Shown: piece after piece, positions 6,716-23,255 of the stretch | Layout of the letters: each line of letters opens with the position of its first letter | How positions within the stretch are numbered: the first letter of the stretch is position 1 | DNA from: a virus | Lineage: Duplodnaviria > Caudoviricetes | DNA: 64,000 bases | Direction: 5' to 3' (one strand) | IMG/VR virus record: IMGVR_UViG_3300020460_000012 | Position numbers and translations under genes: made by a program | Notes under the pieces: generated by a model | What the model saw: only the letters and a program-made list of their open reading frames with translations | Database searches by the model: none | Told to the model about the DNA's origin: nothing

Positions 6716-7684
6716 TTAATATCCTGTTGTTTCCATTAAGTTTATATCATTTTCAAAACAATAATTTCTTACTTGCTCTCTAAAGGTAAACAAATCTATG
6801 TCCGGCACTGATTTATAAATGCTGTTTATGCCTTTGATTATACTACTTTGTTTATCATTAAATTTAATATTTTTCTTCAAAGCTGGCAACAATATTTCCA
6901 ATAGCCACGAAGCCGCGCCGTCTGTAGAAGGATGAGGATCCCACCAATAAGGTTGCTGTTTCTTTGTAGAAGCATTTGTGTTACCAAACTTGTATACACG
7001 ATTAGAGTCGGTTAAGAATTGTTCCTTTCCTAATTTTTGTCCTTCCCAAACATGATTACCAATAGGTTTTAACCAATACTCTTTATTATCATTCCATATC
7101 ATGTTTACATAATGTTCAAATTCAGGATATCTTTCTAGTAGATTACCTTCTGCATCAGTTGATTCTCCGTCGCCATTAAAATTTAAAAAATCTGCACCTA
7201 ATTTTTGAAAATCTCCTATACTAGTCATAAACCATGTACAGCCTACAGATTTTAAAAGTGCTTGAGCAAGTGTTATTGCATTTAGTGAATACATAACGTA
7301 TGTCTGCTCACTAAAAAAATGATCTAACCATACTCTGTTATATATAGATGTATTATGCATGTTAAACATAGAACCTTTAGTTAACCAAGCCGATTCTTTA
7401 TTTTTTTCCGGAAGTCCAGAATCTATCCAAGTCTTACTAGTTTTTTTGAATAAGTGATAATCATTTCTTAAATGGGAAGACCATTGTACAATTATTGTAT
7501 CGTCTTTTGTAAATTTGTTTTTTGAATGGCATTCAGCTAATCTCTGTGCAATACCAAGATTGCCTATACCAGGAAGCCCCCAGTTTTCTGCCTTGTCATA
7601 ATCTGTATCGTAGCATAGTATTGTTGCCCACGTCGGCCAATCAACTAGAGAGAAACTACAACCGAATGTGAAAAGTCTAGCCAA
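6716..7684 (-). CDS. SGNH/GDSL-hydrolase-like protein (possible glycan acyltransferase/esterase)
   Basis: N-terminal FTFGCSFS (block I-like), GLPGIGN (block II-like), IIVQWS, C-terminal WDPHP (block V D-x-HP-like). Translationally coupled to both neighbours. Confidence 0.55.
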   Translation of the reverse strand: MARLFTFGCSFSLVDWPTWATILCYDTDYDKAENWGLPGIGNLGIAQRLAECHSKNKFTKDDTIIVQWSSHLRNDYHLFKKTSKTWIDSGLPEKNKESAWLTKGSMFNMHNTSIYNRVWLDHFFSEQTYVMYSLNAITLAQALLKSVGCTWFMTSIGDFQKLGADFLNFNGDGESTDAEGNLLERYPEFEHYVNMIWNDNKEYWLKPIGNHVWEGQKLGKEQFLTDSNRVYKFGNTNASTKKQQPYWWDPHPSTDGAASWLLEILLPALKKNIKFNDKQSSIIKGINSIYKSVPDIDLFTFREQVRNYCFENDINLMETTGY

Positions 7685-7686
7685 GA

Positions 7687-8622
7687 TTACTCGCCTAAAT
7701 GCTTATCGATTTCTTCTACAATATGGGTTTCTATTTTGTCATTCATTTGCATAATGCCTTCGTTTACTCTGTCTGAAAATTCATCTACAGTCACTCTAAT
7801 CGGGCTGTATACTCTTGAAAGTTCGCCCATGTCCATTATATTAAATGATTCACAATTTGGATAGGAAGTATTAATAGGAAATGTACTTCCAATGACAACC
7901 GTGGACGGAATACCTGTTGCATAAGCAAGATGTTGTCCTACACTATCACAGCCCACAAAGTAATCAGCTTCGGCTATTAATGCTGTCCAAGTTCTCAAAT
8001 CAGTTCCTTTAGGTACAGCAATTGGTCTGTCTACACCATGTTCTTTAAAGTCAATAGCTATTTCTCCCATAAAAATTATACCATAGTTTTTAGAAAGTGC
8101 CTTAACCATGTTGACTAAATTTGTAGGCTCAATACTTCTACCGCTAAAATCTGTTAGCATGCCGCCTTCTTCAATAATACCTTTACCAAAAGGTTGAATA
8201 ACAATTATTTTTTCTCTTTCGGTTTTTTCTCTTACTTCTTTTATTACTGTAGAAGCCCGCATAAGTTCACCTTTACTAAGCTTAATAGTGGGCTTAGGTA
8301 AGTCTCTTACACCTTGATTGTTGATTGCAATATCATATGCTTGTGATAAACTGCATTTTTGATTATAGTATTCCCAAACCCTGTATGGTTCTGGACTAAG
8401 CATATTCATATCTTTGAGCTTATCTTCGAATAAATTTTTGTGCCAATGATCATATGCTTTTGCATGTAGCACAGGATGTCCTTTAAAAAAATCAGAACCT
8501 CCCTCACATACAACTAAAAAGTTGTCATCTGGATTTTCTTCGTGAAACTTTTCAAGTGCAGGAATCGAGCAAACAACTCTTCCTGCTCCACCATTAATAA
8601 AAATTGCAGTGCTTCTTGCCAT
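7687..8622 (-). CDS. Glycosyltransferase family 9-like (heptosyltransferase fold)
   Basis: N-terminal INGGAGRVVCSIPALEKF and C-terminal ALIAEADYFVGCDSVGQHLAYATGIPSTVVIG match the GT9 pattern (lI..ad.fvg.DSg..HlA.A.g.p...l.G). Confidence 0.85.
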   Translation of the reverse strand: MARSTAIFINGGAGRVVCSIPALEKFHEENPDDNFLVVCEGGSDFFKGHPVLHAKAYDHWHKNLFEDKLKDMNMLSPEPYRVWEYYNQKCSLSQAYDIAINNQGVRDLPKPTIKLSKGELMRASTVIKEVREKTEREKIIVIQPFGKGIIEEGGMLTDFSGRSIEPTNLVNMVKALSKNYGIIFMGEIAIDFKEHGVDRPIAVPKGTDLRTWTALIAEADYFVGCDSVGQHLAYATGIPSTVVIGSTFPINTSYPNCESFNIMDMGELSRVYSPIRVTVDEFSDRVNEGIMQMNDKIETHIVEEIDKHLGE

Positions 8623-8712
8623 ATTTATAGATCCTATCGTTAGTAAACATAGTAGTTAATTGCTACTATGAATATTTAGCGACCAAAGATTTATAAATTA
8701 GATAAAGTGACT

Positions 8713-9756
8713 TTATTCTACTGCTGTTGATAATGCTGGATTATAAGTTTTTTCAGCTTCTTCAAATGCATGTGCATCTTCTGTATCTGTTGCTACACTA
8801 TTAGCTTTAGTAACTTTTTTCCAGCTTGTAGGTCTTGTAAACAATGGTGATTCTCTCCATTTTACTTTCCAAGGATCAACTTGTTTAACTTTAGTAAGAG
8901 TAACTTTTGCTCCTGTTCCGCTTCCGTTTGTTACAAAGAAACATTCTGTGTAAACTGCGGCTTCTGGATGATATAATGCTCTCTTATTTTCAACACTAAA
9001 CTCTGTAATTGCTCCTGAACCACTTACTTTAGTAACAGTAAGTTTCACTTCGTCAACTACTTGTGTGTTTTTATATTTAGGATCTTGTACTAATAACACA
9101 TCTCCGACACTATAACCAGAACCACCTGTTGGCACTGTAGCTGTCCATGCAACACCAACTGTTTCAGTAATATCTCTTAGATATGTTCTATATTCTTGTA
9201 TTTTTGTAATTAATCCTGAAGGCAAATCTTCACTGTAAAGTCTATCACTGTTCTGTAACTGGTTGTCTCTAAAAGCAACTTTCTCTTCCCATGTCATAAT
9301 AGGTTTTCTCCAAGGTAACGGAGTTACCCATTGCTCTGCTTGAGGAGAATACTCAATTTCTGTAATTTCGTAAGTATGATTAGGTACGGGATACTTATCT
9401 CTTACATATGGTGTATCTTGTCCTGGTACATCTTCTTCTATGTCAGGAATTGAATGGGGATCAACGCCTTCAAATAAGCCAGCTATAATACATTCAGTAT
9501 TAGAATCTTCAGGTCTTACTTCTACCATATAATGATCACCTTGTGGAAATGGTATCTCGCCATTAAATAATTGCTGACCTACTTCTCCTCCTGATTCACA
9601 ACGTATAAGTTTATTTGTAATACTATCAACCCATACATATACTTTATCAGGACCTTTGTAAATTACTCTTGCTTTTTTACCTAGGTCGTTAGTTTGGTGA
9701 TATATATCATCAGGTAAATCGTAAGTAAATTCTTTTGTTATTTCATTTATAGCCAT
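8713..9756 (-). CDS. Tail fibre assembly chaperone-like protein B, with an inserted fibre-type module
   Basis: Carries the motif RDNQLQNSD...DLP....YRTYLRDI typical of phage tail assembly chaperone domains. Its N-terminus (FTYDLP..YKGPDKVYVWVD) is shared with 11328..11999. Confidence 0.6.
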   Translation of the reverse strand: MAINEITKEFTYDLPDDIYHQTNDLGKKARVIYKGPDKVYVWVDSITNKLIRCESGGEVGQQLFNGEIPFPQGDHYMVEVRPEDSNTECIIAGLFEGVDPHSIPDIEEDVPGQDTPYVRDKYPVPNHTYEITEIEYSPQAEQWVTPLPWRKPIMTWEEKVAFRDNQLQNSDRLYSEDLPSGLITKIQEYRTYLRDITETVGVAWTATVPTGGSGYSVGDVLLVQDPKYKNTQVVDEVKLTVTKVSGSGAITEFSVENKRALYHPEAAVYTECFFVTNGSGTGAKVTLTKVKQVDPWKVKWRESPLFTRPTSWKKVTKANSVATDTEDAHAFEEAEKTYNPALSTAVE

Positions 9757-9765
9757 AATTATTCC

Positions 9766-10566
9766 CTACCAGTATACCACATAAATCATTCCGCCGCCAC
9801 CAACGCCGCCACATCTACATGTACCGTCATTAGTCCAGCCTGTCATTCCTCCACCGCCTGGGTGCATGCCCATCATCATACATGCTTGTCCACAACAACT
9901 AGAGTATGATCCACAAATGCCACCATGGCAACTGTTACAGCATGTTGAAGTACCTTGTGGTCTAGGTCCTGGTGTACCGTATGCACTACCTACATGTTGC
10001 CAACCTGCTTCGATACAAAATTGGCTACTACGATATGCACCTGTTACACTAGTTTGACATTCTAATGTGGTTATTCCTGAACCACTTATATAATTGTTTG
10101 AACAACATGCACACATAGAACAACAAGAATAACAGTTTGTAGCTAAATGACACCTTGTATATCTAGCAGAGCATAATCCGCCTTCTACGCACATACACCA
10201 AGTTCCGTCACCATTACAAACATATGACGAACATCCGTGGAATCCTGCACAACAACTCATATTAGCACCAGATGTACCAGCTGAACACATTCTAATTTGA
10301 TCGCCTGCAGAAACATCAGTTTCGACCATCATATAGCCGCCACCGCCGCCACCGCCGCCTTGTGTACAACAACAGCTATAGCCACCGCCTGCACCGCCGC
10401 TCCATACTTCAAATACTGCCTTTGTTACACCTGCTGGCACTGTCCAAAGATAACAACATCCTCCGTTGTGTGGTAACCACTTATTTGTATTTTGTATATA
10501 AAATTCTTGTGGTTTGATAACACCGCCTGTTTCGTAACCGTATATTAAATTTGTTAATTGACTCAT
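9766..10566 (-). CDS. Cys/Gly-rich virion (fibre-associated) protein C
   Basis: NGGCCYLWTVPAGVTKAVFEVWSGGAGGGYSCCC...GGGGMIYVVYW is the glycine-rich-domain frame of phage fibre proteins; about 31 Cys in 266 aa (hand count). Confidence 0.7.
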   Translation of the reverse strand: MSQLTNLIYGYETGGVIKPQEFYIQNTNKWLPHNGGCCYLWTVPAGVTKAVFEVWSGGAGGGYSCCCTQGGGGGGGGYMMVETDVSAGDQIRMCSAGTSGANMSCCAGFHGCSSYVCNGDGTWCMCVEGGLCSARYTRCHLATNCYSCCSMCACCSNNYISGSGITTLECQTSVTGAYRSSQFCIEAGWQHVGSAYGTPGPRPQGTSTCCNSCHGGICGSYSSCCGQACMMMGMHPGGGGMTGWTNDGTCRCGGVGGGGMIYVVYW

Positions 10567-10576
10567 GTTCTATTCC

Positions 10577-11326
10577 TTACGATGCTACGTGCCATTCTAC
10601 TATAATTAAACCTCCGGCTCCTGCCGCACCACAACCGCAATAGCTGTTATGACTTGACGCCGTTCCGCCACCGCTGCCTGGCCAATAAGCATATCCTTGT
10701 TGTCCACAACCACAGCAATAACCTGAACATGCGTCTCTTGCTGGACGGAAAAAATCTCCTGTAAATGGTGCTTGTGGTGCCCAGTTCCATGCTGTTCCTG
10801 AACAAAATGCTGTACCTTTAAAAGCACCGGACATTCCGCATATTCCAAATCCGCCACACCATGAGCCGCATTCATATGCTGAACAACCCATATAGCTGTT
10901 TCCAATTGGACCCCAGCAATAATTACATCCTACTTTACCTGCACTTGCACAAATAACATTAGCGGCTTCTGTTACACCATAAGCATAACTAGGATATCCT
11001 GGACATCCAGTGTTTGTATTTGCACAAGTAGTTGAACCGCCTGCACAAAATCTGTACTGCTGTCCTGCTACAGTGTTAATAATTTTTCTTGCATAGCTTC
11101 CTGCTCCGCCTGGAATACCAAAGAAACAGCAACAGTTACCTGCGCCGCCTCCGCCGCCGCCCCACATTTCCACTGCAAACCATGTAACGCCAGTTGGTAC
11201 TGTCCATAAACAACAGCATCCGCCATTTTCCATATTGTCTACACTTGTGTGATAGACTACCATTGAATCAACAGCTACGGTGCCGCCACCGCCTCCATAT
11301 TGTAACATTGTTTTCAGTGCTGACAT
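10577..11326 (-). CDS. Cys/Gly-rich virion (fibre-associated) protein B
   Basis: NGGCCCLWTVPTGVTWFAVEMWGGGGGGAGNCCC...GAGGLIIVEW; about 23 Cys in 249 aa (hand count). Confidence 0.7.
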   Translation of the reverse strand: MSALKTMLQYGGGGGTVAVDSMVVYHTSVDNMENGGCCCLWTVPTGVTWFAVEMWGGGGGGAGNCCCFFGIPGGAGSYARKIINTVAGQQYRFCAGGSTTCANTNTGCPGYPSYAYGVTEAANVICASAGKVGCNYCWGPIGNSYMGCSAYECGSWCGGFGICGMSGAFKGTAFCSGTAWNWAPQAPFTGDFFRPARDACSGYCCGCGQQGYAYWPGSGGGTASSHNSYCGCGAAGAGGLIIVEWHVAS

Positions 11327-11327
11327 A

Positions 11328-11999
11328 TTATTCTGCCTTCGTATCTGGTGCTAACGGAAATTCAACTTTCCAAGCTTCTACTTCGTCTGATTCACCTTTT
11401 TTATAAACTGTTGGTAGATCCCTAAGTGCTTGTCTGTAAGTAACCCATGGTGTTTTTACAGCATCGGGCATATCTGGTGAAATTTTACCGTCGGAAGCTT
11501 CTAGCTGTGAATCTCTTTGTAATATAATGTCATCCCAATCAACTGGTGAAGTTTTGTAACCTGCTGACCATGTTTTTGCATCTAAATCATAAACACATTC
11601 GCTTTCGTCGACGTATGTTTCTCCAATTTCTGGCTTACCATTATATTTTATGGTGTAATCACCGTATGTTTCTGTAACTGTTGTTTGATCATTTGTTACA
11701 ATAGTTGAATCAGCAACTCTAAAAATTGCCATCATTAAAGGATCATCTGCAAGAGTTACTTCAACTCTTGTAGTACCTACTGGTACAGGAACATCTGCTC
11801 CTTCATCTCTTTCTGTTAGTTCTCCTGGACTTCTAATTCTTTTGCCCTTGTTGTCACCGTCTGTATCAACAAATACATAAACCTTGTCTGGTCCATTGTA
11901 TGTAGCAGAAGCTGTTAGTCCATCACTATCACTAGAATCAAACATCTTGTTTGGCAATTTGTAATCAAATGTTTTACTAGCTATTGTATTTTCTGGCAT
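11328..11999 (-). CDS. Tail fibre assembly chaperone-like protein A
   Basis: C-terminal WDDIILQRDSQLEASDGKISPDMP....WVTYRQALRDLP is the classic phage tail assembly chaperone motif. Confidence 0.7.
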   Translation of the reverse strand: MPENTIASKTFDYKLPNKMFDSSDSDGLTASATYNGPDKVYVFVDTDGDNKGKRIRSPGELTERDEGADVPVPVGTTRVEVTLADDPLMMAIFRVADSTIVTNDQTTVTETYGDYTIKYNGKPEIGETYVDESECVYDLDAKTWSAGYKTSPVDWDDIILQRDSQLEASDGKISPDMPDAVKTPWVTYRQALRDLPTVYKKGESDEVEAWKVEFPLAPDTKAE

Positions 12000-12018
12000 T
12001 TTCTTTCCTCACACATTA

Positions 12019-12825
12019 TTAATTATAGTATACATACACTTGGCCACCGCCACCTGGTTGTCCATCACAGTGTGAACCTCCGCAAGCTATTCCGCTTGTT
12101 CCTGGTCCTCCAGGAAATTTATTTCCTGTAAATGGATCACCACTTGTACACATTACATATCGTCCTTGTTGATACCAACAAGAACATAAATCTTCGTTCA
12201 TTTGTCCAGGCTGATTAAATCCTGAATGGGTCCAATAATAATACTGCGTATGACAGTATGTATTTCTTGTACCATGCCCACCAATACCTGGCATAATTAT
12301 TCCTTTGTTAGCATCTGCAACATAACCTTGTGTAGCACTAGATGAACCGCCTTGTATTCTTCCAAAACAGCAAGTATATGCATTGTATGGGCTCTGGAAC
12401 CCTGGCTGTTGTGATCCTTCATCACCTCCACATGCACAAATTATAGTTGCGGCCGCTGTTACATCATAAACATATGATGGACAACCATAACAGCTAGTAT
12501 TTGATTTATTATATGCACAACCAGTTGACGATCCTGCACAAATTCTATATTGACAACCTGCTTGGGTATCCATTTGATACCAAACATAAGAACCACTAGT
12601 TCCTTGATAAGCTTCAAAACTACAACAACATCCATCATTACCTGATGAACCACCGCCCCATAGTTTAAACACAAGACTTGTTATACCTGCAGGCACAGTC
12701 CACAAACAACAGCAACCTCCGTTGGCGGCACTTGTATGCGATGTATTCCATACTCTAAGTCTTTGAGGTATGTTACCTACGCTTTGTGGTCCTATATCGG
12801 CCAGTAGTGTTGTTAAAGCAGTCAT
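12019..12825 (-). CDS. Cys/Gly-rich virion (fibre-associated) protein A
   Basis: NGGCCCLWTVPAGITSLVFKLWGGGSSGNDGCCC...GGGGQVYVYY; about 21 Cys in 268 aa (hand count). Confidence 0.7.
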   Translation of the reverse strand: MTALTTLLADIGPQSVGNIPQRLRVWNTSHTSAANGGCCCLWTVPAGITSLVFKLWGGGSSGNDGCCCSFEAYQGTSGSYVWYQMDTQAGCQYRICAGSSTGCAYNKSNTSCYGCPSYVYDVTAAATIICACGGDEGSQQPGFQSPYNAYTCCFGRIQGGSSSATQGYVADANKGIIMPGIGGHGTRNTYCHTQYYYWTHSGFNQPGQMNEDLCSCWYQQGRYVMCTSGDPFTGNKFPGGPGTSGIACGGSHCDGQPGGGGQVYVYYN

Positions 12826-12850
12826 TGACTAACTCCCTGATTAATCTTAC

Positions 12851-13171
12851 TTATGAGCCACATAATACCCAACCATAAGTAGCCCCAGAATACACTAGTA
12901 TCGGCGAAGCATTATTAATATCAATAATAAGATCCGAAGCATCATTTTGAATTTCTTGCCCGTTTCTTGCTACTGTGATATTTGACGATCCAGCTGTTCC
13001 AGAAATATCAACTACTTGAATAGTATCATTTTCTGTTGGACTTGCTGGAAGGGTTACTGTAATGCCACCAGCTGTACATAAAATACGCTGATTAACTGCC
13101 GCGTTTACACTAGTACCTGTGACAACATTTGTAGTTGCGTAGTTAAGTGTGCTTGTTAAATATCTTCCCAT
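12851..13171 (-). CDS. Small tail-fibre attachment-domain protein, 106 aa
   Basis: GGITVTLPASPTENDTIQVVDISGTAGSSNITVARNG...LVYSGATYGW resembles the N-terminal repeat of T4-like proximal tail fibres. TAAATA at 13189-13194. Confidence 0.65.
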   Translation of the reverse strand: MGRYLTSTLNYATTNVVTGTSVNAAVNQRILCTAGGITVTLPASPTENDTIQVVDISGTAGSSNITVARNGQEIQNDASDLIIDINNASPILVYSGATYGWVLCGS

Positions 13172-13191
13172 TATATTGTCCTTTTATATAT

Positions 13192-13509
13192 TTATGCCGT
13201 TGTCTCAATACCCATAGCTACTACACTTACGTTGCTTGAGCTAGCGTATGCAACTATTTTCTTACCGGCGTCAACGACTATACCAGTGCGTTCTAATACG
13301 TTTTTTGGATTCAGTTCAACATCATACTCAATGTACTCATCTGCACCTGGAGTGCTTGTATCACAAATTGCTAAACGAAGCAAGACTACGGCGTTGCCTC
13401 TATTGACAAAATTAACACTAGCTACTGCATAGGTGCTTGCCGGACAAGTGTAAATATCAGTATTCGTTGCGCCTGTTAAATCCGCTGTTCCTAATCTTCC
13501 TGTGGCCAT
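13192..13509 (-). CDS. Small beta-sandwich virion protein (paralogue of 23657..23986 and 27617..27982)
   Basis: TNTDIYTCPASTYAVASVNFVNRG..EYIEYDVELNPKNVLERTGIVVDAGKKI; GGAG RBS. Confidence 0.6.
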   Translation of the reverse strand: MATGRLGTADLTGATNTDIYTCPASTYAVASVNFVNRGNAVVLLRLAICDTSTPGADEYIEYDVELNPKNVLERTGIVVDAGKKIVAYASSSNVSVVAMGIETTA

Positions 13510-13523
13510 TTGTTATATCTCCA

Positions 13524-16500
13524 TTATGCGTTAATAAACATATTTAAGGCTACGGGTGATCCACTCACCCCACCTGTATAGTTTACCTGTGCTGTTATAT
13601 TTATCTCTTGATTGGTTGTATGCGATATTGTCTGACCAGTTATATTAACTTGACCAGCAGTAATCGAGTTCACATTTAGTTCACCAGCACCGCCACCAAT
13701 TTGACTTGCTATATAAGTTTTAATAGCTCTCTGTGTTGGAACAATACTGTCACTGTTGGCTGTAAACGTACCATCAGTTGAAAACTCAGTAATTGTGGCA
13801 CTAGTACCACCTAAACTTATTTCACCGAGTTGTAATTCTTGTAATCCACTAACATTAAAGGCATCAGCATTTAGTGTTGCTCTACCTGTAGACTGTTCAA
13901 CGCTGAATAATTCTCCTACTCTAAAGTTACCGTCCTGATCAGTTGAGGTATAAAATACTCTACCACCACCAAAATCTTTAGTCTCGTCTGTTTGATCAGC
14001 TGGTGTACTTGGAGTTCCAGGATAGTTTGTAGTTGTTGTATTACCAGTACCTACGTCTAAGAAATCATGTCCTGTTAATCTAACCTGACTATATCTTCTA
14101 CGTATAGTTATACCTTCATCATGTTCTGGTGCTTCTGTTACAGTAATATCTGGACTTACTTGTAGTAATGCTTCATAATTACCCGCACTACCAGTTACTT
14201 GTGTTACTCCTACAAGTTTATACCATTTTCCTGCTATACCTGCAATCTCTACATTAGCTCCTTGTACTGGAGTTTCAGTTAAGTTTTTAACTTTGACATA
14301 TTGTCCAGGTTGATAGTTATCTGCATAACCATTTGCTGATGCTACTGTAGCTGTAGCAGTTGTATATCCTGTACCTCTGTTACTAAAAGTAGGTTGTCCT
14401 AACACACCGCTACCTGTCCTTACTGTATGAGGTACGTCAACAGTATTATTAGGATCAGTCAGTGTCATTGTTGGTGTACTACTATATCCAGAACCAGGAT
14501 GCCAAATCTTAATTTGTGTTACTTTTCCATCTTCAATTTTTGCTCTAGCTTTAGCAATATCAGCATATGCACTTACGCCGCCGCCGCTAAACACTACTCT
14601 AGGTTCAATTATATATTCTGTAGTTGCATCAAGAGCTGATACAATACCTGCTCCGTATACACTATCCCAACCTGCTGTTCCGTCGCTGTTTTTTAACACT
14701 GTTGCGACTTTTGTGCCTGAATCATATGTATTAATATATGCATATTGACCTGCACCTGTGCCGCTTACAATCCAAATAGCCATACCTGCATACATTGCAT
14801 TTGTTGCGGTATCTGTGTTACTAAGAGTAATTTGTGTTGCTGTGCCTACTTGTGCATTATTAGTAGCGGTTACGTATCCAGCGCCACCTAAATCGCTTGA
14901 TGGGTCTGTAAGTCTAACTTGATAAACAGCACCGTTATAAACATTTTCTGCACTTATAGCCGCATCATTATTGCCTCCGACTATTGTTGTAGTTGTATCA
15001 CCATCTGCATAGCTTACTCCTGCATTTAAATATTCAAAGAATAGTATCTGATTTTTGTCAGTAACTATATTTTCAATTTTAGCTTCTGTTGACTGGTTAG
15101 TAACTTTACCTGTCACTGCTGTTTCTGTGCTATCAATACCTTCTGCTACACATCCAAAGTCACCATATGAGCTGTTACCGTTTGTTGCACGTATCTTGCC
15201 GCCGTTTTCTGATAGATATCCTATGTGTGCATAATAAGAGAACACACTAACAAGTTCTGCTCTACCTAAGTTTGTTACCCAAGCACCAATACCATCACTA
15301 ATAATTTGTGTAAAGTCGTTTGCAACTATTGAGTCATTTCCGCCGTCATGTAGGTCTCCGTCAATCTTAAGACCAATACAACCTGTACCAAATGTTGTTA
15401 CATTTTGTATATATGGGGATCTAGTTAAAATATGTGCATCTGTATCTGCTGGACCATATCCTGGATCTAAGCTAATATATGCACCTGCACTTGGTCGTTT
15501 AGTACCATAGGAGTTTGCACTACCTAAAGTACCAGACAAGCCACTTACTGTACAGTTTCTTAAGCCTGAACCGTTTCTCATAAAGAACATATTTTCTGTA
15601 CTAGAGCCACTTACAGAGTTGCTATACAACAATGCCGCATTTATCATTCTCCAGTTTCCTGTATATTCTAAATCATATTTCATTGCGTCAATATATCTGT
15701 TAACATCTCTTGTACAAGCCGCTATAGTATATGTGTAGCTAGGATATTGCACTGCAATATAAGCATGTACTTCTGCAACTAAAAATGTTCTGTTAGCTTC
15801 TATAGCTTCTATAGCATATCTATAACCTGTATCATATGTAGGTGTATTTGTACCTCTGGTTGTAGGAACTGTGGAATCACCAGTTACTCCATTTACCCTA
15901 TAATCAATATAGTCTTCAAGTTCTTGGAATAATGCTGTAGCCGCAGTACCTGCCGCACTTGAACCTGCGGGTCTTGATGTTACTTGTGTTTCAGCATTTC
16001 CTGCTGATTTTGTAACTGAACCGTTTGTTACAATATCACTTATAATTGCTTTTAATCTTTGTATTGCCGCTATACTTTTTGGCACATCAGTAGCTTGTGT
16101 TTGCTGACCTGCTGGTTGTATTTTTGTTGAACGTAATTCGTCACCTATCAATGCTGTATTTGCAGGGCATAGTATAGGAAGAGTTTCTTGAAATGTTCCG
16201 CTCTTAATATAGAGTGAATTGTTAGGTATCACAGCTGATGCCATATTTGTTGTATTACCAGCTGTCACTGCCGCTGTTAAAATATTAGCTAAACTTGTTG
16301 CAGTTGATAAATCATCTGACTCTTCTGTGTAATTTGTATCTGTTTGCTGTGTAGCTGTTACAGAACCTTGCAAAGTTTGATAATCAGATGCTGGAGCCGC
16401 ATTGCTTAATACTGCATCTGCAACAACTAATACTCTTGCAATCATTGCATTAAATTCTGTTATTTTACCAGTAATAGTTGCATCTGCATGTATAGCTGTA

Positions 16501-18296
16501 GTTAACTCTCTTGTGCGTACATTGCCTCCGTGACTCAAATCATAAACAAGTGCATCAACTAATCTACCAACAAATTGCATCCATGTTGCCTTAGTATATG
16601 TGAACGAACCTGTATATGGACTTGTGTTATTTGCTATTCCGTGATCTACGAATTCAACAGCATCGTGCATTATGTAACTTCTATTAATGTGTAACAGTCT
16701 CTTCGCCGCAGGACGCTGTGCTCCGTCCCATAATTGCTGTGTTGCATATTGTATTGTTTTCCACGGACGATCTAAAGTAAGTCCGTATGCACTCGCTGGA
16801 CTATCTACTCCAGCAGTAGGATGTACATAATAAACATTGTTTAGCCTACCAAAGTAACCCCATTCTGGTGCATTACCAGCGGCATTTACTTTAAGTACTT
16901 GTCCTTCAGCACCAATTGGTAATCTTGTAGGACCTGCACCACTATAGTAAACTAAATCACCTTGTGTAGTTAAGTTGCCTGATTCTGCACCTGCGACTAA
17001 TGCATTCCAGTACACACCGCCTGTGTCATTGTCTGGACGTTTAGCTGTATCAGATGTGTGAGCTAAAATACAAACATAGCTGTTAACACCATATCTAATA
17101 GAATCACCTTTATCATATAGTGTAGCTGTTGCCCATGCATTTTTCCATTTAAATCCTTCGTTAAGGAGTTCCCAGTATGTTCCGTTAGGTGGTCTTTGTC
17201 CTGTATGATCTTGTATACATAGATATGTAAATCCGCCTAGTCGTACTACATCACCTACTCTATATTCTTCTGCAGAACTATCATCTCCCCAATCTTGGGC
17301 ATGTTTGAATCCTGTAGTAAATAAAGACCAGTCTGTTGAATTTGCTGGTGGATGACCTTGACCAACGTTATTTGTTTTAGAAACATATGAATAACCGCCG
17401 TAAGTAACAAAGTCGCCTGGTTGATATGTTGTTGTACCACTCCAACTATCTTCAAATTCTAAACCTTCAACAAACTGTGACCATTTATTTTCGTCGGCTG
17501 CAAAAGTAGATTGGCTTGTGTGATAAGTGATACAAATCCATGTGCCGCCGCCATACTTAACAATGTCATTTATTTTGTATCGTGTATTCGTTGACCAGTC
17601 TGTTTTGTATTCTAATCCTTTGTTTAGATAGTCCCATTTACTTTGATCATTTTCTAAACCTAAACCTACAGAAGCCGCTGACGTGTGTCCTTGATTACAG
17701 ACATATACTTGTCCGCCATAACGTACTATGTCATTTACGACATATCTAGTATTAATGTTCCAATCATTTTTCCAGTAAAATCCTTCAGAAAATATATTCC
17801 ATTTTGCTTGGTCATTTTCTAGTCCTAAAGTAGTTGTACTTGCAGATGTATGAGCAGTTACACAAGTATAAATTGTACCGTTATACTTTACAATATCGTT
17901 TACTTTATATCTTGTATTAATACTCCAATCAGCTTTGTAATCAAAACCTTCAGCAAATAAGTCCCAGCTTCCTTGATTAGCTTCTAATCCTAAAGTAGCA
18001 GTAGCGGCAGAAGTATGCTCTGCATTTGCTATATATAGATATCCTCCATATTTTACTATGTCGTTAATTTTGTAAAGAGTGCTTGTAGACCAGTTACCTT
18101 TCCACTCAGTTCCATCGGAAATTTTATTCCAATTAGTTGCTTGGTTAGTAGAAAATAGTGCTGGAGCAGTATGCCCTTTAATACAAATATATGTATTACC
18201 GCCATTTCTAACAATATCATCTTTGTAGTAGGTCGTGGAAGCTGTCCAATTATTCTTCCATATAAACCTAATTCTACCTAATTTAAATTCAGCCAT
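13524..18296 (-). CDS. Giant tail fibre/spike protein 1 (1590 aa) with Trp-rich carbohydrate-binding-like repeats and a beta-helix
   Basis: About eight W......Y..xDIV.Y.G..Y.C...HT repeats (CBM5/12, ChiC-like), a central beta-helix-like region (FFMRNGSGLRNCTVSGL...NDFTQIISDGIG) and C-terminal YSQVRLTGHDFLDVG. TAAATA at 18321-18326. Confidence 0.8.
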   Translation of the reverse strand: MAEFKLGRIRFIWKNNWTASTTYYKDDIVRNGGNTYICIKGHTAPALFSTNQATNWNKISDGTEWKGNWSTSTLYKINDIVKYGGYLYIANAEHTSAATATLGLEANQGSWDLFAEGFDYKADWSINTRYKVNDIVKYNGTIYTCVTAHTSASTTTLGLENDQAKWNIFSEGFYWKNDWNINTRYVVNDIVRYGGQVYVCNQGHTSAASVGLGLENDQSKWDYLNKGLEYKTDWSTNTRYKINDIVKYGGGTWICITYHTSQSTFAADENKWSQFVEGLEFEDSWSGTTTYQPGDFVTYGGYSYVSKTNNVGQGHPPANSTDWSLFTTGFKHAQDWGDDSSAEEYRVGDVVRLGGFTYLCIQDHTGQRPPNGTYWELLNEGFKWKNAWATATLYDKGDSIRYGVNSYVCILAHTSDTAKRPDNDTGGVYWNALVAGAESGNLTTQGDLVYYSGAGPTRLPIGAEGQVLKVNAAGNAPEWGYFGRLNNVYYVHPTAGVDSPASAYGLTLDRPWKTIQYATQQLWDGAQRPAAKRLLHINRSYIMHDAVEFVDHGIANNTSPYTGSFTYTKATWMQFVGRLVDALVYDLSHGGNVRTRELTTAIHADATITGKITEFNAMIARVLVVADAVLSNAAPASDYQTLQGSVTATQQTDTNYTEESDDLSTATSLANILTAAVTAGNTTNMASAVIPNNSLYIKSGTFQETLPILCPANTALIGDELRSTKIQPAGQQTQATDVPKSIAAIQRLKAIISDIVTNGSVTKSAGNAETQVTSRPAGSSAAGTAATALFQELEDYIDYRVNGVTGDSTVPTTRGTNTPTYDTGYRYAIEAIEANRTFLVAEVHAYIAVQYPSYTYTIAACTRDVNRYIDAMKYDLEYTGNWRMINAALLYSNSVSGSSTENMFFMRNGSGLRNCTVSGLSGTLGSANSYGTKRPSAGAYISLDPGYGPADTDAHILTRSPYIQNVTTFGTGCIGLKIDGDLHDGGNDSIVANDFTQIISDGIGAWVTNLGRAELVSVFSYYAHIGYLSENGGKIRATNGNSSYGDFGCVAEGIDSTETAVTGKVTNQSTEAKIENIVTDKNQILFFEYLNAGVSYADGDTTTTIVGGNNDAAISAENVYNGAVYQVRLTDPSSDLGGAGYVTATNNAQVGTATQITLSNTDTATNAMYAGMAIWIVSGTGAGQYAYINTYDSGTKVATVLKNSDGTAGWDSVYGAGIVSALDATTEYIIEPRVVFSGGGVSAYADIAKARAKIEDGKVTQIKIWHPGSGYSSTPTMTLTDPNNTVDVPHTVRTGSGVLGQPTFSNRGTGYTTATATVASANGYADNYQPGQYVKVKNLTETPVQGANVEIAGIAGKWYKLVGVTQVTGSAGNYEALLQVSPDITVTEAPEHDEGITIRRRYSQVRLTGHDFLDVGTGNTTTTNYPGTPSTPADQTDETKDFGGGRVFYTSTDQDGNFRVGELFSVEQSTGRATLNADAFNVSGLQELQLGEISLGGTSATITEFSTDGTFTANSDSIVPTQRAIKTYIASQIGGGAGELNVNSITAGQVNITGQTISHTTNQEINITAQVNYTGGVSGSPVALNMFINA

Positions 18297-18329: not shown

Positions 18330-21300
18330 TTATATGTTTGTCCTATCATTTCCGCTATCAGCACCATGAGTAAAGTATTGCATTGCCGCTATTGATCCTT
18401 TAGTAGGTTTATCATGATGTCCTCTAGCAGTTAAATGTATCATATTACTAGTAGTTGACATAGTGTCTGCTGTAACACTAATTGAACCCGACACAAGTTT
18501 GTTAGTGTTTGCATTACTACTACCACCTGATACTCTTGATTGCAAATATTTTCCTATTGCTCTTTGTGTAGGTACAATAGTATTTGCATTAGCAATAAAT
18601 GTAGGCTCTTTCGAAAATTCGTTAATTATAACTTGTGTTCCACCTACTACAATTCCGCCTAGTGTTAGCTGTGTCAATCCAGTTAAAGTAAAGTAAGAAG
18701 CATTAAGTGTAATAATACCTGTATCTTGTTCAACTTTAAATTGTTCACCAACTCTAAAGTTACCGTCTTGGTCTGTCGAAGTATAAAATACTCTACCAGC
18801 ATTAGCTTCTCTTACTTCGTTTTGTTGTTGTGGATCGTTTGTAGCATTATAGCCTTCTACATATCTATTAGGATAATCTGTGTCTCCTATGTTACCAGAA
18901 CCAACATCTAAGAAATCATGTCCTGTCAATCTAACTTGACTGTACTGTTGACGTATAGTAATAGCAGTATTATGCTCAGGCGATTCTGCTCTACCTAGTG
19001 TAGGACTTATAGTCAGTGTTAGATTATAATTTCCTGAACTTCCTGATTGTGCATCGATGCTAGAAACTTTATAGTCAACATCGTTTATTCCGCTTATTAC
19101 TAAGTTATCGCCTGGTCCGGGAACTAAACTTACTCCTTTTAGTTTTAATGTGCCTCCTATTTGGAAACTATCTGCATGACCAAAACCTGCTATTGTACAA
19201 GAAGCAGTAATGTAAGAAGTACCTCTGTTACCAAATACTGGTTGAGGAAGAACGCCATCGTTTATTCTTGCTACTTGTACAGAATTAATTGTTGCTTGTG
19301 GATCATAAACTGTCACTGTTGGAGCCGAAGCGTAATCACTGCCAGGTTCATATACAAAAAACTCGTTAATTTTATCTGACTTAACTACTGCTCTAGCAAA
19401 CGGTTTCGCTCCCCAACCTGTGACTAGGTTCCAATTAGCATTATTGTCTGCAATTACTACCCAATTATTTAATGCTGTACTGTATCCTGCTCCTGACCAA
19501 CTTGCACTTTCTGTTGCAAGGTAATCAGAACTATCATCACTTGTAATTCTCCATACAACTCCGTCTTGTGACTTTGCTAATTGATTACCTGTACCTATGG
19601 CCATAAATGTTCCGCCACTTGATTTGCCATCTACTATACCTGATTGTCCTTTGTGTCCTTCACTGTAAAAAATTCTTGTAAAGTCAGTAGAGCCCGGTAT
19701 ACTGTATTCATACCAATATATTCCATCAAAACTTATTGCTGTTTTAGTTTCTGTGCTTACATCACCCGGGTCTATAGCAACAAATCTACCATTACCAAAA
19801 ATGACGTCAGTGTAACCAACAGGTAATCTTCCTGTTGCTCCTGCGTCATATTGAGTAGACAAACCTGATGAGAATCTAGTAGTGTTAATTGCAACACCTC
19901 CTTTTGAACCTGTGTTTAAATAAACAAATGTTCCATCTGGACCTCCTACACCTGGACCGTATGCGACCTTAGTATAACTGTATAGTGCCGAATCATTTGA
20001 TGCATTAGTTGGCGTATGGTATTGATAGCTTCCAAAATTATTACCTGAGTACCAAACTCTATAATTACCAAAAGCAAATCCTGTACGCTGATTTGTATCA
20101 CCTGGTATAATTGCGCCATCTTTTAATTCAACCCCTGCCATATTTGCAGTATAAGAAGGTAAACTAGTTGCATGTGATTTTGCCGCTACACCGAATTGAT
20201 ATATTGTCCCTGCACCTCCTGAGCCTCCGTTGTCTTCCGCAAAAATTAATACTTGACTACCCCAAGAATCATATTGCACTGCGACTACATCCTTCCCTGT
20301 AAATCTCACTGCTGGAGTACTCCATGTAATTCCGTCTGCTGAATGTGAAGTATACGTATCTCCAGCACCACCTGCTGTTACAGCTACAAAGCAACTTCCA
20401 GCATCGAACCATATTACCTCTTTCCATATTGTACTACTTGGTGCAGTAATCTGTGTAGCAGTTAATGGATGATCACTAAATGTAACTCTTGGTTCAATAC
20501 TGTATCTTGTATTTGTGCCTAGTAATGTTTCAATAGGCCAACCTGGATTTATATGATCCCATCCTGCTGAACCGTCTGATTCTCTACTTACTTGTGCAAC
20601 TTTAGATACATCGTTATAACTAGAAATATATCCATATTGACCTACACCTACACCAGAATTAATAAAAATTCTCATGCCATTGTATTTTGACGGACTACCG
20701 TCTGTATCTGCGGCCGCTAAAGTAATACTTGTTGCATCACCGCCTTGAGCATTATTCAATTTATATTGATAATTATTTCCGCCTGCCGCACTTGAATCAC
20801 CAGGGTCTAGCAATCTAATTTCAGATACTGCGCCATCTCTAGTTTCTTCGTATGTAGCTGTTGCATTTACACCTTGTCCAGCAAAAGTAACTGTTGAAGC
20901 GTTTGATCCGCTTGCTTTATTTTTATAAGTTCTACCTGCATTTTTATATTCTAATGCTAGTATCATATTTTGATTATCAGTTATAACATTTGCACTTGCT
21001 TCTGAAGCTTGGTTATCCACATTTCCTGTTATTGCTGTTTCAGTTGTATCATATCCTTCTGCTACACTTCCAAATGTTCCATATGAGTTATTACCATTTG
21101 TTGCACGTAGTTTTCCACCTTCATCTGCCAAATAACCTATATGACAATAATATGTGAATACACTTACTAATTCTGATCTACCGTTATTTGTTGCCCAGTA
21201 CCCTATACCATCGCTTATTATTTGTGTAAAATCATTTGCAACAATTGATTTGTAACCTGAATTATGTAATGCTCCATCTATTTTTAATCCTACACATCCT

Positions 21301-23255
21301 GTGCCAAATGTTGTAATGTTTTGTATGTATGGAGACTTACTTGTAATATGCGTATTAGTATCACTTATTCCTGTGCCTGGGTCTAGACTTACATATGCTC
21401 CTGCATTTGGACGCTTTGTACCGTATGCATTAACTGTGCCTAAAGTACCAGTCAATCCTTGCAAAGTCATGTTACGCATGCCTGCTCCATTGCTAACGTA
21501 AAACATGTTATTTGCTTCACGTCCTGCCGCAGGTTGCACTGTAACACTTCTAAGTTCGTCTCCTACTAATGTTGTTTCTTTTGGAATTGATATCGGGGTA
21601 AGCTCGTCATAATATCCAGCTGTTACAAATACAGTTGCTGGAGCCCTATTTGCCCAGTCTGCATTAATATAATCACATGCATATTTTATTGTTCTAAAAG
21701 GAGCGTTGACTGTTGTTCCGCTGTTAGCACTATCAACACCAGTTACACCAACGTAATAAACTTTTGATACAGGTCCATAGTCTTGCCATATTGTGTTATT
21801 ACTTACGGCCTTTAATGTCGCACCTGGAGCACCAATAGCTAGTCTAGTAGTCTGTGATGCATCTCTTACACGTATATCTCCATCTGTTGTTAAAACGTTC
21901 CCGTCAATACCTGCAAGCATTAATTGCCAATAGTTTTCATGTTCGTTAGCCATGTCAAGATCAGGTCTGTTGTCAGATTCTGTACCAGCATGTCTTGCTA
22001 TACAATAGTATGCACTTCCGTCATAAGTTACAATATCTCCTACATAGTATTGTACATTATCAACCCAATCACTTTTCCATTTGTGTCCAGGCACTAATAT
22101 TTGCCACTTTGCAGAGCTATCTGGATATTCTGATATAGAATTAGTTACACAAATATACAAATAACCACCGTTTCTAACTACATCACCTGTGTAGTATTGT
22201 GTGACATGATTGTACTCACCTTGATGTTTGTAACCTTCTTTTGTAAGCTCCCAGTCTCCTGTATCTTGTAATTTTCCGTTTACACTAGGTACACTACCTA
22301 AATTGTTTTGTAAACAAGTATAAACATAACCGCCATATAAAACTATATCGCCTTTTTGATATTCAGTTGCTTGATTCCATAATAGTTCATAACCAAAACC
22401 GGGTAACCAAACAGACCAATAACTACTTGCTTCATCAGTTCTAAACAAAGCACTTGCTGTATGACCTACTAGACATTTCCAAATAGTTTCACCATATTTG
22501 ACTAAATCATTTTTTCTATACCTAGTGCCTGTTGTCCATTCTACTTTATATTCAAATTGATCTAATACTACTTCCCATTTAGGTAGATCTGCTTCAAGTC
22601 CTCCACTTTCACCTGCATTAGAAGTATGATATACTGTACAACGATATACTATACCATTATACCTAACAACATCGTCTACCATATATCTTGTGTTTACAGT
22701 CCAATCTGCACGCCAATTATCTGATCTTGCTACTATTTCCCAACTTATCTGATCTTGTTCTAAGCCATCGGTTACGTTTGAGGCAGATGTATGTTTTGCT
22801 ATACAACGATAGGTTATACCATTGTAAATTACTATGTCTCCTAGATCGTAGAAAAATCCTGTAGTCCAAGTATTTGTCCAATTATCAGTCGTTGCAACAA
22901 TGGTCCATTTACTATAGTCTGTATGTGGACCTTGTGAGGTCACTACGTTAGAAGTATGAGCTTCGATACATCTGTAAACATATCCTTCCCATTTTATAAT
23001 TTCGCCTACACTGTAGTATGTGTTATTGACCCAGTCTCCTCTCCACATCATGCCGTCAAGCATAAGTTCCCATTTTGGAGTTGCATGATTTAAATCTGTA
23101 TAAAATCCAGTAGCTACTGCTTGCGAAGTATGTCCTACAAGACAAACATATGATTTGCCTTGATAGATTACTATATCATCTTTTCTATATACTGTAGAAA
23201 TTGCCCAGATATTTTTCCATCTAAACCTAATTCTATCAATATTAAATTCTGCCAT
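18330..23255 (-). CDS. Giant tail fibre/spike protein 2 (1641 aa), paralogue of 13524..18296, with an Asp-box insert
   Basis: Same N-terminal Trp repeats, beta-helix and YSQVRLTGHDFLDVG end; additional S-x-D-G-x-x-W motifs (SADGITW, SFDGIYW, SQDGVVW). Confidence 0.8.
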   Translation of the reverse strand: MAEFNIDRIRFRWKNIWAISTVYRKDDIVIYQGKSYVCLVGHTSQAVATGFYTDLNHATPKWELMLDGMMWRGDWVNNTYYSVGEIIKWEGYVYRCIEAHTSNVVTSQGPHTDYSKWTIVATTDNWTNTWTTGFFYDLGDIVIYNGITYRCIAKHTSASNVTDGLEQDQISWEIVARSDNWRADWTVNTRYMVDDVVRYNGIVYRCTVYHTSNAGESGGLEADLPKWEVVLDQFEYKVEWTTGTRYRKNDLVKYGETIWKCLVGHTASALFRTDEASSYWSVWLPGFGYELLWNQATEYQKGDIVLYGGYVYTCLQNNLGSVPSVNGKLQDTGDWELTKEGYKHQGEYNHVTQYYTGDVVRNGGYLYICVTNSISEYPDSSAKWQILVPGHKWKSDWVDNVQYYVGDIVTYDGSAYYCIARHAGTESDNRPDLDMANEHENYWQLMLAGIDGNVLTTDGDIRVRDASQTTRLAIGAPGATLKAVSNNTIWQDYGPVSKVYYVGVTGVDSANSGTTVNAPFRTIKYACDYINADWANRAPATVFVTAGYYDELTPISIPKETTLVGDELRSVTVQPAAGREANNMFYVSNGAGMRNMTLQGLTGTLGTVNAYGTKRPNAGAYVSLDPGTGISDTNTHITSKSPYIQNITTFGTGCVGLKIDGALHNSGYKSIVANDFTQIISDGIGYWATNNGRSELVSVFTYYCHIGYLADEGGKLRATNGNNSYGTFGSVAEGYDTTETAITGNVDNQASEASANVITDNQNMILALEYKNAGRTYKNKASGSNASTVTFAGQGVNATATYEETRDGAVSEIRLLDPGDSSAAGGNNYQYKLNNAQGGDATSITLAAADTDGSPSKYNGMRIFINSGVGVGQYGYISSYNDVSKVAQVSRESDGSAGWDHINPGWPIETLLGTNTRYSIEPRVTFSDHPLTATQITAPSSTIWKEVIWFDAGSCFVAVTAGGAGDTYTSHSADGITWSTPAVRFTGKDVVAVQYDSWGSQVLIFAEDNGGSGGAGTIYQFGVAAKSHATSLPSYTANMAGVELKDGAIIPGDTNQRTGFAFGNYRVWYSGNNFGSYQYHTPTNASNDSALYSYTKVAYGPGVGGPDGTFVYLNTGSKGGVAINTTRFSSGLSTQYDAGATGRLPVGYTDVIFGNGRFVAIDPGDVSTETKTAISFDGIYWYEYSIPGSTDFTRIFYSEGHKGQSGIVDGKSSGGTFMAIGTGNQLAKSQDGVVWRITSDDSSDYLATESASWSGAGYSTALNNWVVIADNNANWNLVTGWGAKPFARAVVKSDKINEFFVYEPGSDYASAPTVTVYDPQATINSVQVARINDGVLPQPVFGNRGTSYITASCTIAGFGHADSFQIGGTLKLKGVSLVPGPGDNLVISGINDVDYKVSSIDAQSGSSGNYNLTLTISPTLGRAESPEHNTAITIRQQYSQVRLTGHDFLDVGSGNIGDTDYPNRYVEGYNATNDPQQQNEVREANAGRVFYTSTDQDGNFRVGEQFKVEQDTGIITLNASYFTLTGLTQLTLGGIVVGGTQVIINEFSKEPTFIANANTIVPTQRAIGKYLQSRVSGGSSNANTNKLVSGSISVTADTMSTTSNMIHLTARGHHDKPTKGSIAAMQYFTHGADSGNDRTNI

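Follow-up and report, generated by a model that had tools for sequence, protein, structure and literature searches.

The closest described counterpart of the proteins considered here is gp24, the tail fibre of the cyanophage Pam3. This fibre begins with a helical shaft at the N-terminus, which is followed by a TNF-like sandwich and a glycine-rich domain; the last two of these recognise the host receptor (PMC9608196). Its chaperone gp25, which is encoded alongside gp24 and binds it in a 3:3 ratio, possesses an N-terminal β-sandwich like the N-terminus of TfaMu (PMC9608196). The words cysteine and disulfide are never used in the paper on the fibre (PMC9608196), and the one fibre cysteine described in the paper on the virion is Cys28, which links the fibre to the wedge (PMC9942802). 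Here we report on three neighbouring genes, p1 (encoding P0003), p2 (P0002) and p3 (P0001), in a 64,000-nucleotide stretch of DNA from a tailed virus (IMG/VR record IMGVR_UViG_3300020460_000012), which as a whole is called the window below. Their products are extremely rich in cysteine and, as judged by structure models, belong to the glycine-rich-domain family with the TG fold. Very probably they are small tail-fibre tip proteins involved in host recognition, with a virion location and a receptor role that we infer.

Over the 46 window open reading frames (ORFs) of at least 100 amino acids (aa), the mean cysteine content is 0.86%; P0001, P0002 and P0003 are the top three among them, and 17–21% of their residues are glycines. 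All three carry the motifs NGGCC(C/Y)LWTVPxGxT and (F/V)(E/K)xW(G/S)GG, a second CCC and a C-terminal GGxG-hydrophobic strand. Pairwise BLASTP comparisons gave E-values of 5e-28 (P0002 against P0003), 1e-19 and 8e-16, with 39–47% identity across the N-terminal 100–137 residues, and the C-terminal halves were diverged. Judging from these sequences, the three proteins are paralogues. A preliminary description of the stretch had given the places of the three ORFs, their 21, 23 and 31 cysteines and a cysteine share of roughly 8–12%, all of which the ORF calls and counts bore out; each motif that it quoted was recovered in every paralogue. The GC content is 0.42 at positions 10001–12000 and ~0.36–0.39 in the flanks, a rise that we ascribe to the GGN and TGY codon load of glycine- and cysteine-rich genes rather than to a foreign origin. 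One further cysteine-rich frame, a 126-aa ORF with 9 Cys (7.1%) at 28013–28390 on the plus strand, lies wholly within the minus-strand gene 27991–28953 and is probably a spurious antisense frame.

With the Pfam family Gly_rich_2 (PF21722), P0001, P0002 and P0003 scored 18.6, 23.0 and 22.9 bits, under the cut-off of 24.3 (E-values of 0.002, 8.9e-5 and 9.6e-5, respectively). In all three, the alignment spanned the whole domain, from profile position 6 or 7 to position 225 of 226. Gly_rich_2 was also matched at E ≤ 0.01 by 14 of the 29 close relatives (best 3.4e-7), and many relatives have a precomputed PF21722 match. P0003 and P0002 additionally matched phrog_4205, a family of unknown function (E-values of 6.6e-20 and 7e-21). 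In a sequence-profile search of the Protein Data Bank (PDB), the sole match was a chance one (E-value of 1).

AlphaFold2 (AF2) models were obtained for P0003 from 29 homologues, with a predicted local distance difference test score (pLDDT) of 71.9 and a predicted template-modelling score (pTM) of 0.73, and for P0001 from 21 orthologues (pLDDT 65.1, pTM 0.67). For both models, the best match among solved structures was the Pam3 fibre gp24 (7ypx_A), with a VIA Z of 15.8 across 211 aa for P0003 and of 17.2 across 199 residues (rmsd 3.3 Å) for P0001; Foldseek likewise paired a Cys-rich model with this fibre (E-value of 1.8e-5). Chain Q of the tail tip of mycobacteriophage Bxb1 ranked second (Z 12.2–12.8), followed by the TG domains of ALK/LTK (Z 9–12), and all remaining matches had Z ≤ 5. 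Libraries of predicted structures returned viral Gly_rich_2 clusters and, in BFVD, phage minor tail proteins and glycine-rich-domain proteins, with uncharacterised proteins of the phages S-CAM3 and P-SSM2 as the top matches. The glycine-rich frame had been likened to phage fibre domains in the preliminary description, and this likeness is upheld by the fold match to Pam3 gp24, by the adjacent Tfa-type chaperones and by the fibre operon in which the genes lie.

Several points weigh against placing these proteins at a fibre tip. Most of the cysteine-dense C-terminal loops of the models have a pLDDT of only 32–65. The long N-terminal helix of Pam3 gp24 is absent: a helix is predicted only at residues 3–11 of P0003 and 4–7 of P0001, and the sandwich begins at about residue 20. 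No proteomic or structural evidence places the three proteins in any virion, and a literature search returned no proteomic record or mention of the corresponding cyanophage genes PSSM2_304/306, SSSM7_114–116 and S-CAM1 105–107. As for the N-terminus, M1 and L4 of the short helix are invariant across all three classes of paralogue, which suggests that this segment is a short docking peptide and not a shaft.

The cysteines themselves are strongly conserved, and neither chance nor amino-acid composition accounts for them. In the alignment of 204 homologues from 68 loci, eight columns have Cys in at least 90% of the sequences, namely C39, C40, C66, C68, C96, C191 and C214 in P0003 numbering and the column of P0002 C148 and P0001 C149. 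Another 38 columns have Cys in at least 10% of the sequences, many of them fixed in one class only. No residue is better conserved than Cys within the orthologous classes: its identity to the reference is 0.59–0.75, against 0.25–0.33 for residues other than Cys and Gly. In the C-terminal halves, conservation amounts to 0.61–0.74 for Cys, 0.51–0.69 for Gly and 0.17–0.26 for all other residues. Such a distribution is the pattern of a fixed Cys/Gly framework bearing hypervariable loops.

Among the relatives there is a clear Cys-poor exception, P0137, a 5418-aa match from the representative library with seven TG repeats and 0.2% Cys. At some of the positions that align with conserved cysteines it has I, A, S or T (C96 corresponds to I and C130 to A), so that at least a part of the Cys set occupies core or lattice positions. 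It is conceivable that the cysteines, being small and fairly hydrophobic, simply fill space in a tight lattice and form no cross-links, and the lack of a pairing signal (see below) would agree with this. However, eight near-invariant cysteines at ~30% overall identity and a cysteine content of 6–12% exceed what packing would need, and Ser, Ala and Val are used freely at these positions in relatives. We consider this explanation highly improbable.

What the cysteines do chemically is a matter of weighing. In our reading, they covalently staple a lattice that has no hydrophobic core, and the staples are most likely disulfides that arise once the phage has been released into oxic water, a chemistry to which we give an even chance. 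Two precedents are consistent with it. In Pam3 virions, disulfides in the wedge and between fibre and wedge were seen by cryo-electron microscopy and mass spectrometry, and their reduction by dithiothreitol led to the proposal of a redox-dependent mechanism (PMC9942802). In the snow-flea antifreeze protein, disulfides are among the factors stabilising a Gly-rich polyproline II bundle (PMC11364801). Against a purely disulfide-bonded tip stand the parity and the history of the cysteines. Extracellular domains in which all cysteines are paired usually have an even number of them. Of the 204 proteins only 45% have an even count, and of the triplet sums 43%. In a Fitch parsimony analysis on the 204-tip tree, the variable Cys columns changed independently, and only one pair of columns shared at least three events, a test weakened by alignment noise in the loops.

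Random parity and independent gain and loss would suit redundant ligand shells better than fixed pairs, and it is tempting to suppose that the cysteines bind Zn, Fe or Cu while still in the cytoplasm, at multinuclear sites or at sites shared between subunits, and that the metal, in place of disulfides, rigidifies the glycine lattice; trace metal would then be present in marine phage fibres, which would accord with the 'Ferrojan Horse' idea. Folding in a reducing cytoplasm, the frequent CxxC, CxC and CC spacings in P0001–P0003 and the lack of any above-cut-off match to the DsbA-type oxidase family (DSBA) in three complete phage genomes with the module would also fit such a metal-thiolate tip. 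A search of five module-carrying records for Erv1/ALR gave no match; the control was silent as well, which makes this search uninformative. On the other side, Gly_rich_2 was the only Pfam family recovered at E-values up to 1, with no metal-binding, Fe-S or metallothionein family among the matches, a profile null that does not exclude metal. Among the invariant columns, no His, Asp or Glu is conserved as a partner; unlike metallothioneins, the proteins contain many aromatic residues; and exposed thiolate clusters would presumably be prone to oxidation in oxic seawater. Metal-thiolate sites are the main alternative to disulfides but seem unlikely to us, and a mixture of the two is possible. The preliminary description had proposed metal or Fe-S binding, or a disulfide network, and had named a lack of conserved Cys positions among homologues as one finding that would refute it. 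The eight near-invariant columns speak for it on this point, and the redox-sensitive disulfides of Pam3 lend the disulfide half of the proposal a precedent; the Fe-S idea found no signature, and parity and pairing fit poorly with a simple all-disulfide picture.

The Cys-rich family is widespread. A word-indexed search yielded 58 relatives, all metagenomic and 236–268 aa long except for one 160-aa fragment. When 1.84 billion cluster representatives were searched exhaustively with a profile, 958 matches reached E ≤ 1e-3, of which 236 had E ≤ 1e-10 and 52 had E ≤ 1e-30; among the matches listed (n = 147), nearly all full-length sequences contain 6–12% Cys. A scan of IMG/VR gave 78 loci, and Cys-rich, Gly-rich ORFs were counted over 81, of which 78 had exactly three paralogues of ~240–280 aa. 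Two gene orders were found: in 44 loci a chaperone gene stands between the first and second paralogue (p1-chaperone-p2-p3), and in 34 loci the three lie in tandem. On a 264-kb contig from ENA, the entire neighbourhood is conserved gene for gene.

A tree of 204 proteins, representing 68 distinct triplets with the window included, parts in two. Group 1 comprises 38 loci, the window among them, and group 2 comprises 30 loci with tandem genes. In group 1, p3 forms a monophyletic clade of 38/38 (support 0.955), p1 and p2 each consist of clades of 30 plus 8, and positional orthologues of p1 (P0003) occur in 38/38 loci. Concerted evolution was considered for group 1 and rejected, the identity of paralogues within a locus being equal to the cross-class identity between loci. 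On the evidence of this topology, p1, p2 and p3 of group 1 are orthologous classes of ancient origin, each tied to its position and retained in 38/38 loci, and it follows that every group-1 phage keeps one of each class. Group 2 shows more lineage-specific clustering, yet there are three paralogues every time.

Such persistence in deeply diverged phages, including the cultured S-SSM7 and S-CAM1, might point to an obligate heterotrimer, which would form an asymmetric tip from the paralogues at 1:1:1, or from p2:p3 with p1 on its own, and would be a heteromeric counterpart of the gp24 homotrimer of Pam3; this arrangement would be compatible with either Cys chemistry. The ancient classes maintained without concerted evolution, the invariant M1 and L4 and the fixed order p1-chaperone-p2-p3-chaperone are all in keeping with it. 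However, phages of the P-SSM2 type have two longer paralogues, Pam3 has a single homotrimeric fibre, two chaperones suggest at least two separate assemblies, and the counts would be explained equally well if each paralogue formed a homotrimer of its own at a separate site on the baseplate or fibre. A complex prediction of the three paralogues together scored 0.80, but one control scored 0.64, and the result speaks neither for nor against co-assembly. We regard a heterotrimeric tip as a tentative and somewhat doubtful option.

The coordinates of the three genes and of their neighbours are collected in Table 1. The five genes encoding P0003, P0004, P0002, P0001 and P0005 follow one another in this order in one direction, with spacings of 9–19 nt or an overlap, and on account of this spacing we treat them as one transcription unit. 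The T4 late-promoter word TATAAATA shows no enrichment and does not occur within the array, and in scans of the array for sigma-70 promoters and terminators the internal signals were at chance level. Other parts of the window contain genes of a large myovirus, among them those for a major head protein, a portal and a baseplate hub.

Table 1. Genes of the putative Cys-rich tip module and of its surroundings in the window.
Feature	Coordinates	Strand	Product length	Description
p1 (P0003)	12019..12825	-	268 aa	21 Cys (7.8%); putative Cys-rich TG-domain fibre-tip protein
p2 (P0002)	10577..11326	-	249 aa	23 Cys (9.2%); putative Cys-rich TG-domain fibre-tip protein
p3 (P0001)	9766..10566	-	266 aa	31 Cys (11.7%); putative Cys-rich TG-domain fibre-tip protein
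Chaperone 1 (P0004)	11328..11999	-	223 aa	Tfa-type tail-fibre assembly chaperone; Pfam Phage_tail_APC 34.4 bits (cut-off 26.6)
Chaperone 2 (P0005)	8713..9756	-	347 aa	Paralogue of P0004 (BLASTP 2e-17); extra C-terminal domain
s106	12851..13171	-	106 aa	Small fibre-domain protein; PHROG matches are internal or C-terminal segments of tail-fibre and tail proteins
s105	13192..13509	-	105 aa	Small fibre-domain protein; phrog_11338, tail fibre protein (E 9e-11)
Giant fibre	13524..18296	-	1590 aa	Same operon, upstream
Giant fibre	18330..23255	-	1641 aa	Same operon, upstream
GT9-like glycosyltransferase	7687-8622	-		Pfam assignment; downstream of the Cys-rich genes
ORF without assigned family	6716-7684	-		Between the GT9-like gene and the carbamoyltransferase gene
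Carbamoyltransferase	4910-6715	-		Pfam assignment; downstream of the Cys-rich genes

P0004 matches phrog_9740 and tail-fibre-assembly PHROGs. Its paralogue P0005 scores 21.4 bits with Phage_tail_APC, under the cut-off, and matches phrog_9740 with an E-value of 9.7e-27. Residues ~196–292 of P0005 give a weak match to Pfam Gp18_dom_I and match head-decoration and virion-structural PHROGs. Such an extra domain is unusual in a Tfa-type chaperone, and its sequence matches allow one to speculate that P0005 is itself displayed or has one more binding partner.

Upstream of the Cys-rich genes, each of the two giant fibres has seven N-terminal CBM_5_12 carbohydrate-binding repeats (Pfam E-values of 4e-46 and 5e-45), and in almost all related loci, homologues of the giant fibres stand ahead of the Cys-rich genes. 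Genes s105 and s106 are always placed between the giant fibres and the Cys-rich genes, and their products may be adaptors that dock the short N-terminal helices of the tip proteins. The window proteins were traced by tblastn in 37 group-1 and 30 group-2 loci. Gene s106 was found in 37/37 and 30/30 of them, respectively, and also in P-SSM2 and S-CAM1, always directly upstream of the Cys-rich genes; P0004 was likewise found in 37/37 and 30/30, s105 in 37/37 and 9/30, the GT9-like protein in 36/37 and 25/30, and the carbamoyltransferase in 35/37 and 22/30. Some form of the chaperone exists in 67/67 related loci. Overall, the recurring cassette consists of s105, s106, two or three Cys-rich TG proteins, a Tfa chaperone, the GT9-like gene, sometimes an extra ORF, and the carbamoyltransferase gene. 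It was seen at positions 4910–13509 of the window, at loci L001, L005, L012, L041 and L082–L084 and in S-SSM7, P-SSM2 and S-CAM1, that is, in cultured phages and in two deeply diverged groups of contigs. The cassette enzymes, at 48–71% identity, are much better conserved than the tip proteins, at 30–40%. Further downstream, at 3572–4444 on the minus strand, a 290-aa ORF has a weak match to the PHROG category 'baseplate wedge tail fiber protein connector' (E-value of 6e-7); it follows the enzyme genes and precedes a fibre-sized ORF of >1188 aa that leaves the window.

Relatives of the Cys-rich genes also exist in culture. Searches by tblastn with P0003 and the GT9-like protein led to complete Kyanoviridae genomes. 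S-SSM7 has three in tandem, SSSM7_114–116 (261–264 aa, ~11% Cys); P-SSM2 has PSSM2_304 and 306 (355–356 aa, 10% Cys), with ~95 additional N-terminal residues and a chaperone-like gene between the two; and in S-CAM1 they are genes 105–107 (259–311 aa, 10–12% Cys). Both queries also matched S-SSM6a, Sf-FS3 and P-SSM5, and S-CAM3 combines a tblastn match to the GT9-like protein with the BFVD structural match to the P0003 model. Neither megablast of positions 8700–13600 nor tblastn of P0002 found a match in the phage collection, for which the low-complexity filter is probably to blame, since P0003 and the GT9-like protein later reached cultured cyanophages. In all cultured phages examined, the Cys-rich genes are annotated as 'hypothetical protein'. 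Sullivan et al. (2010) assigned the nearby sugar genes (T4-GCs 304–308) to an 'LPS gene cluster' and never mentioned cysteine (PMC3037559), and a literature search on cysteine-rich cyanophage tail fibres yielded only the paper on the Pam3 virion, with no description of the Cys-rich subfamily. The locus had been put forward in the preliminary description as an undescribed system. This claim has to be narrowed: the fold is already known and solved, the Cys-rich subfamily is the part for which we found no published description, and what is new is a Cys-rich variant of a solved fibre-tip fold.

The preliminary description had also tied the Cys-rich genes to the adjacent enzyme operon, and the synteny is indeed conserved across related loci. 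In S-SSM7, P-SSM2 and S-CAM1, the GT9-like gene lies within one or two genes after the Cys-rich genes and is followed by the carbamoyltransferase gene, and in P-SSM2 and S-CAM1, heptose-nucleotide genes come directly after the latter. Given this order, and the frequency with which both enzymes follow the Cys-rich genes and the chaperone in the metagenomic loci, one could imagine that the enzymes modify the tip proteins, for instance by adding S- or O-linked heptose with carbamoyl, with the cysteines as targets or helpers, so that the phage would bear a glycosylated adhesin set. However, synteny among related phages is the sole evidence for such a modification, no acceptor motif was identified, and the enzymes could equally well modify host lipopolysaccharide (LPS), a role that Sullivan et al. 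(2010) discuss for these 'LPS genes' (PMC3037559), or the giant fibres. We find this scenario very unlikely.

Taken together, the observations lead us to the following best explanation, to which we assign, as a whole, a slightly better than even chance. The phage would be a T4-like cyanophage, a Kyanoviridae-like jumbo myovirus, and would make its receptor-binding tip proteins late, from the fibre operon. Each tip protein is predicted to start with a short, conserved docking helix, followed by a TNF-like β-sandwich and by a lattice domain rich in glycine. In the reducing cytoplasm, the tip proteins would be folded and held by both of the Tfa-type chaperones encoded among them, which, if they behave like gp25 of Pam3, would not remain in the virion. 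The N-terminal ~135 residues and the central poly-Gly strands would form the conserved scaffold, and the C-terminal half, with its hypervariable loops in which Cys and Gly alone are kept, would be the host-binding face. The eight near-universal and the class-specific cysteines would staple together a domain that has little hydrophobic core, several of them in place of small core residues of Cys-poor relatives. These staples, whose chemistry we infer, would most likely be disulfides formed on meeting oxic seawater or in late assembly, and the stability of the tip, perhaps also adsorption, would then be redox-dependent. A more far-reaching version can be sketched as well: a polyglycine lattice densely cross-linked by 20–30 Cys per chain, either as a redox-latched disulfide mesh or as a multinuclear metal-thiolate core, in an obligate heterotrimeric three-paralogue tip that is matured by the permanently linked GT9-like protein and carbamoyltransferase, so that the redox or metal state of the surrounding seawater would control whether the cyanophage adsorbs. 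In this full form we think it quite unlikely.

In abundant ocean cyanophages, the Cys-rich proteins probably determine the host range, and the cultured phages P-SSM2, S-SSM7 and S-CAM1 carry them. A disulfide mesh formed after lysis would make infectivity and decay at sea redox-dependent and would extend the Pam3 precedent to a large marine family. If the cysteines bind metal instead, each virion tip would carry trace metal, and the much-debated idea of metal-bearing marine phage fibres would become directly testable. The Cys/Gly framework with its hypervariable loops would represent a compact, naturally diversified binding scaffold, and the fixed paralogue triplet raises the possibility of heteromeric fibres.

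Finally, we would like to set the window proteins beside the known systems that they resemble. The snow-flea antifreeze protein, a polyglycine-II bundle that we compared by description only, is likewise a glycine-rich lattice without a hydrophobic core, and disulfides are named among its stabilisers (PMC11364801); it has one or two disulfides where the window proteins have 20–30 Cys, and it is unrelated in function and origin. The gp38 adhesin of the S16/T2 type (PDB 6F45), going by the account in PMC9608196, resembles them in being a small tip protein whose short N-terminal helices dock on another protein of the fibre and whose conserved glycine-rich motifs alternate with hypervariable host-range segments. 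Adhesins of this type are marked by a three-layer polyglycine-II sandwich that caps gp37. Unlike the window proteins, this adhesin has a β-helix middle domain, is monomeric and is poor in Cys, and 6F45 is not among the listed fold matches of the P0003 and P0001 models. The TG domain of ALK/LTK (PDB 7NX3, 7LS0, 7LIR), an extracellular ligand-binding module, has the same two-part fold (Z 9–12 over ~150 residues). Unlike the window proteins, it belongs to an animal receptor, shares only 13–15% identity with them, has a longer glycine-rich part and binds cytokines. Members of Gly_rich_2 (PF21722) and chain Q of the Bxb1 tail tip (PDB 9D93) share WTVPxGVT, the GGGG motif and the terminal strand; unlike typical members of that family, the window subfamily contains 6–12% Cys, against 0.2% in its relative P0137.

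Pam3 gp24 (PDB 7YPX, 7YFW) remains the closest of all. It differs from the window proteins in that these have 21–31 Cys, including two CCC motifs, occur as three paralogues with two chaperones, and have a helix of ~10 residues in place of the long N-terminal trimerising helix that forms the shaft and docks on the baseplate wedge. Common to both are the TNF-like sandwich, the glycine-rich lattice, the central GGGG strands, the adjoining gene for a Tfa-type chaperone and a home in a cyanophage myovirus. Since one or more TG proteins are followed by a Tfa-type chaperone in both cases, the arrangement in the window mirrors that of gp24 and gp25 in Pam3.

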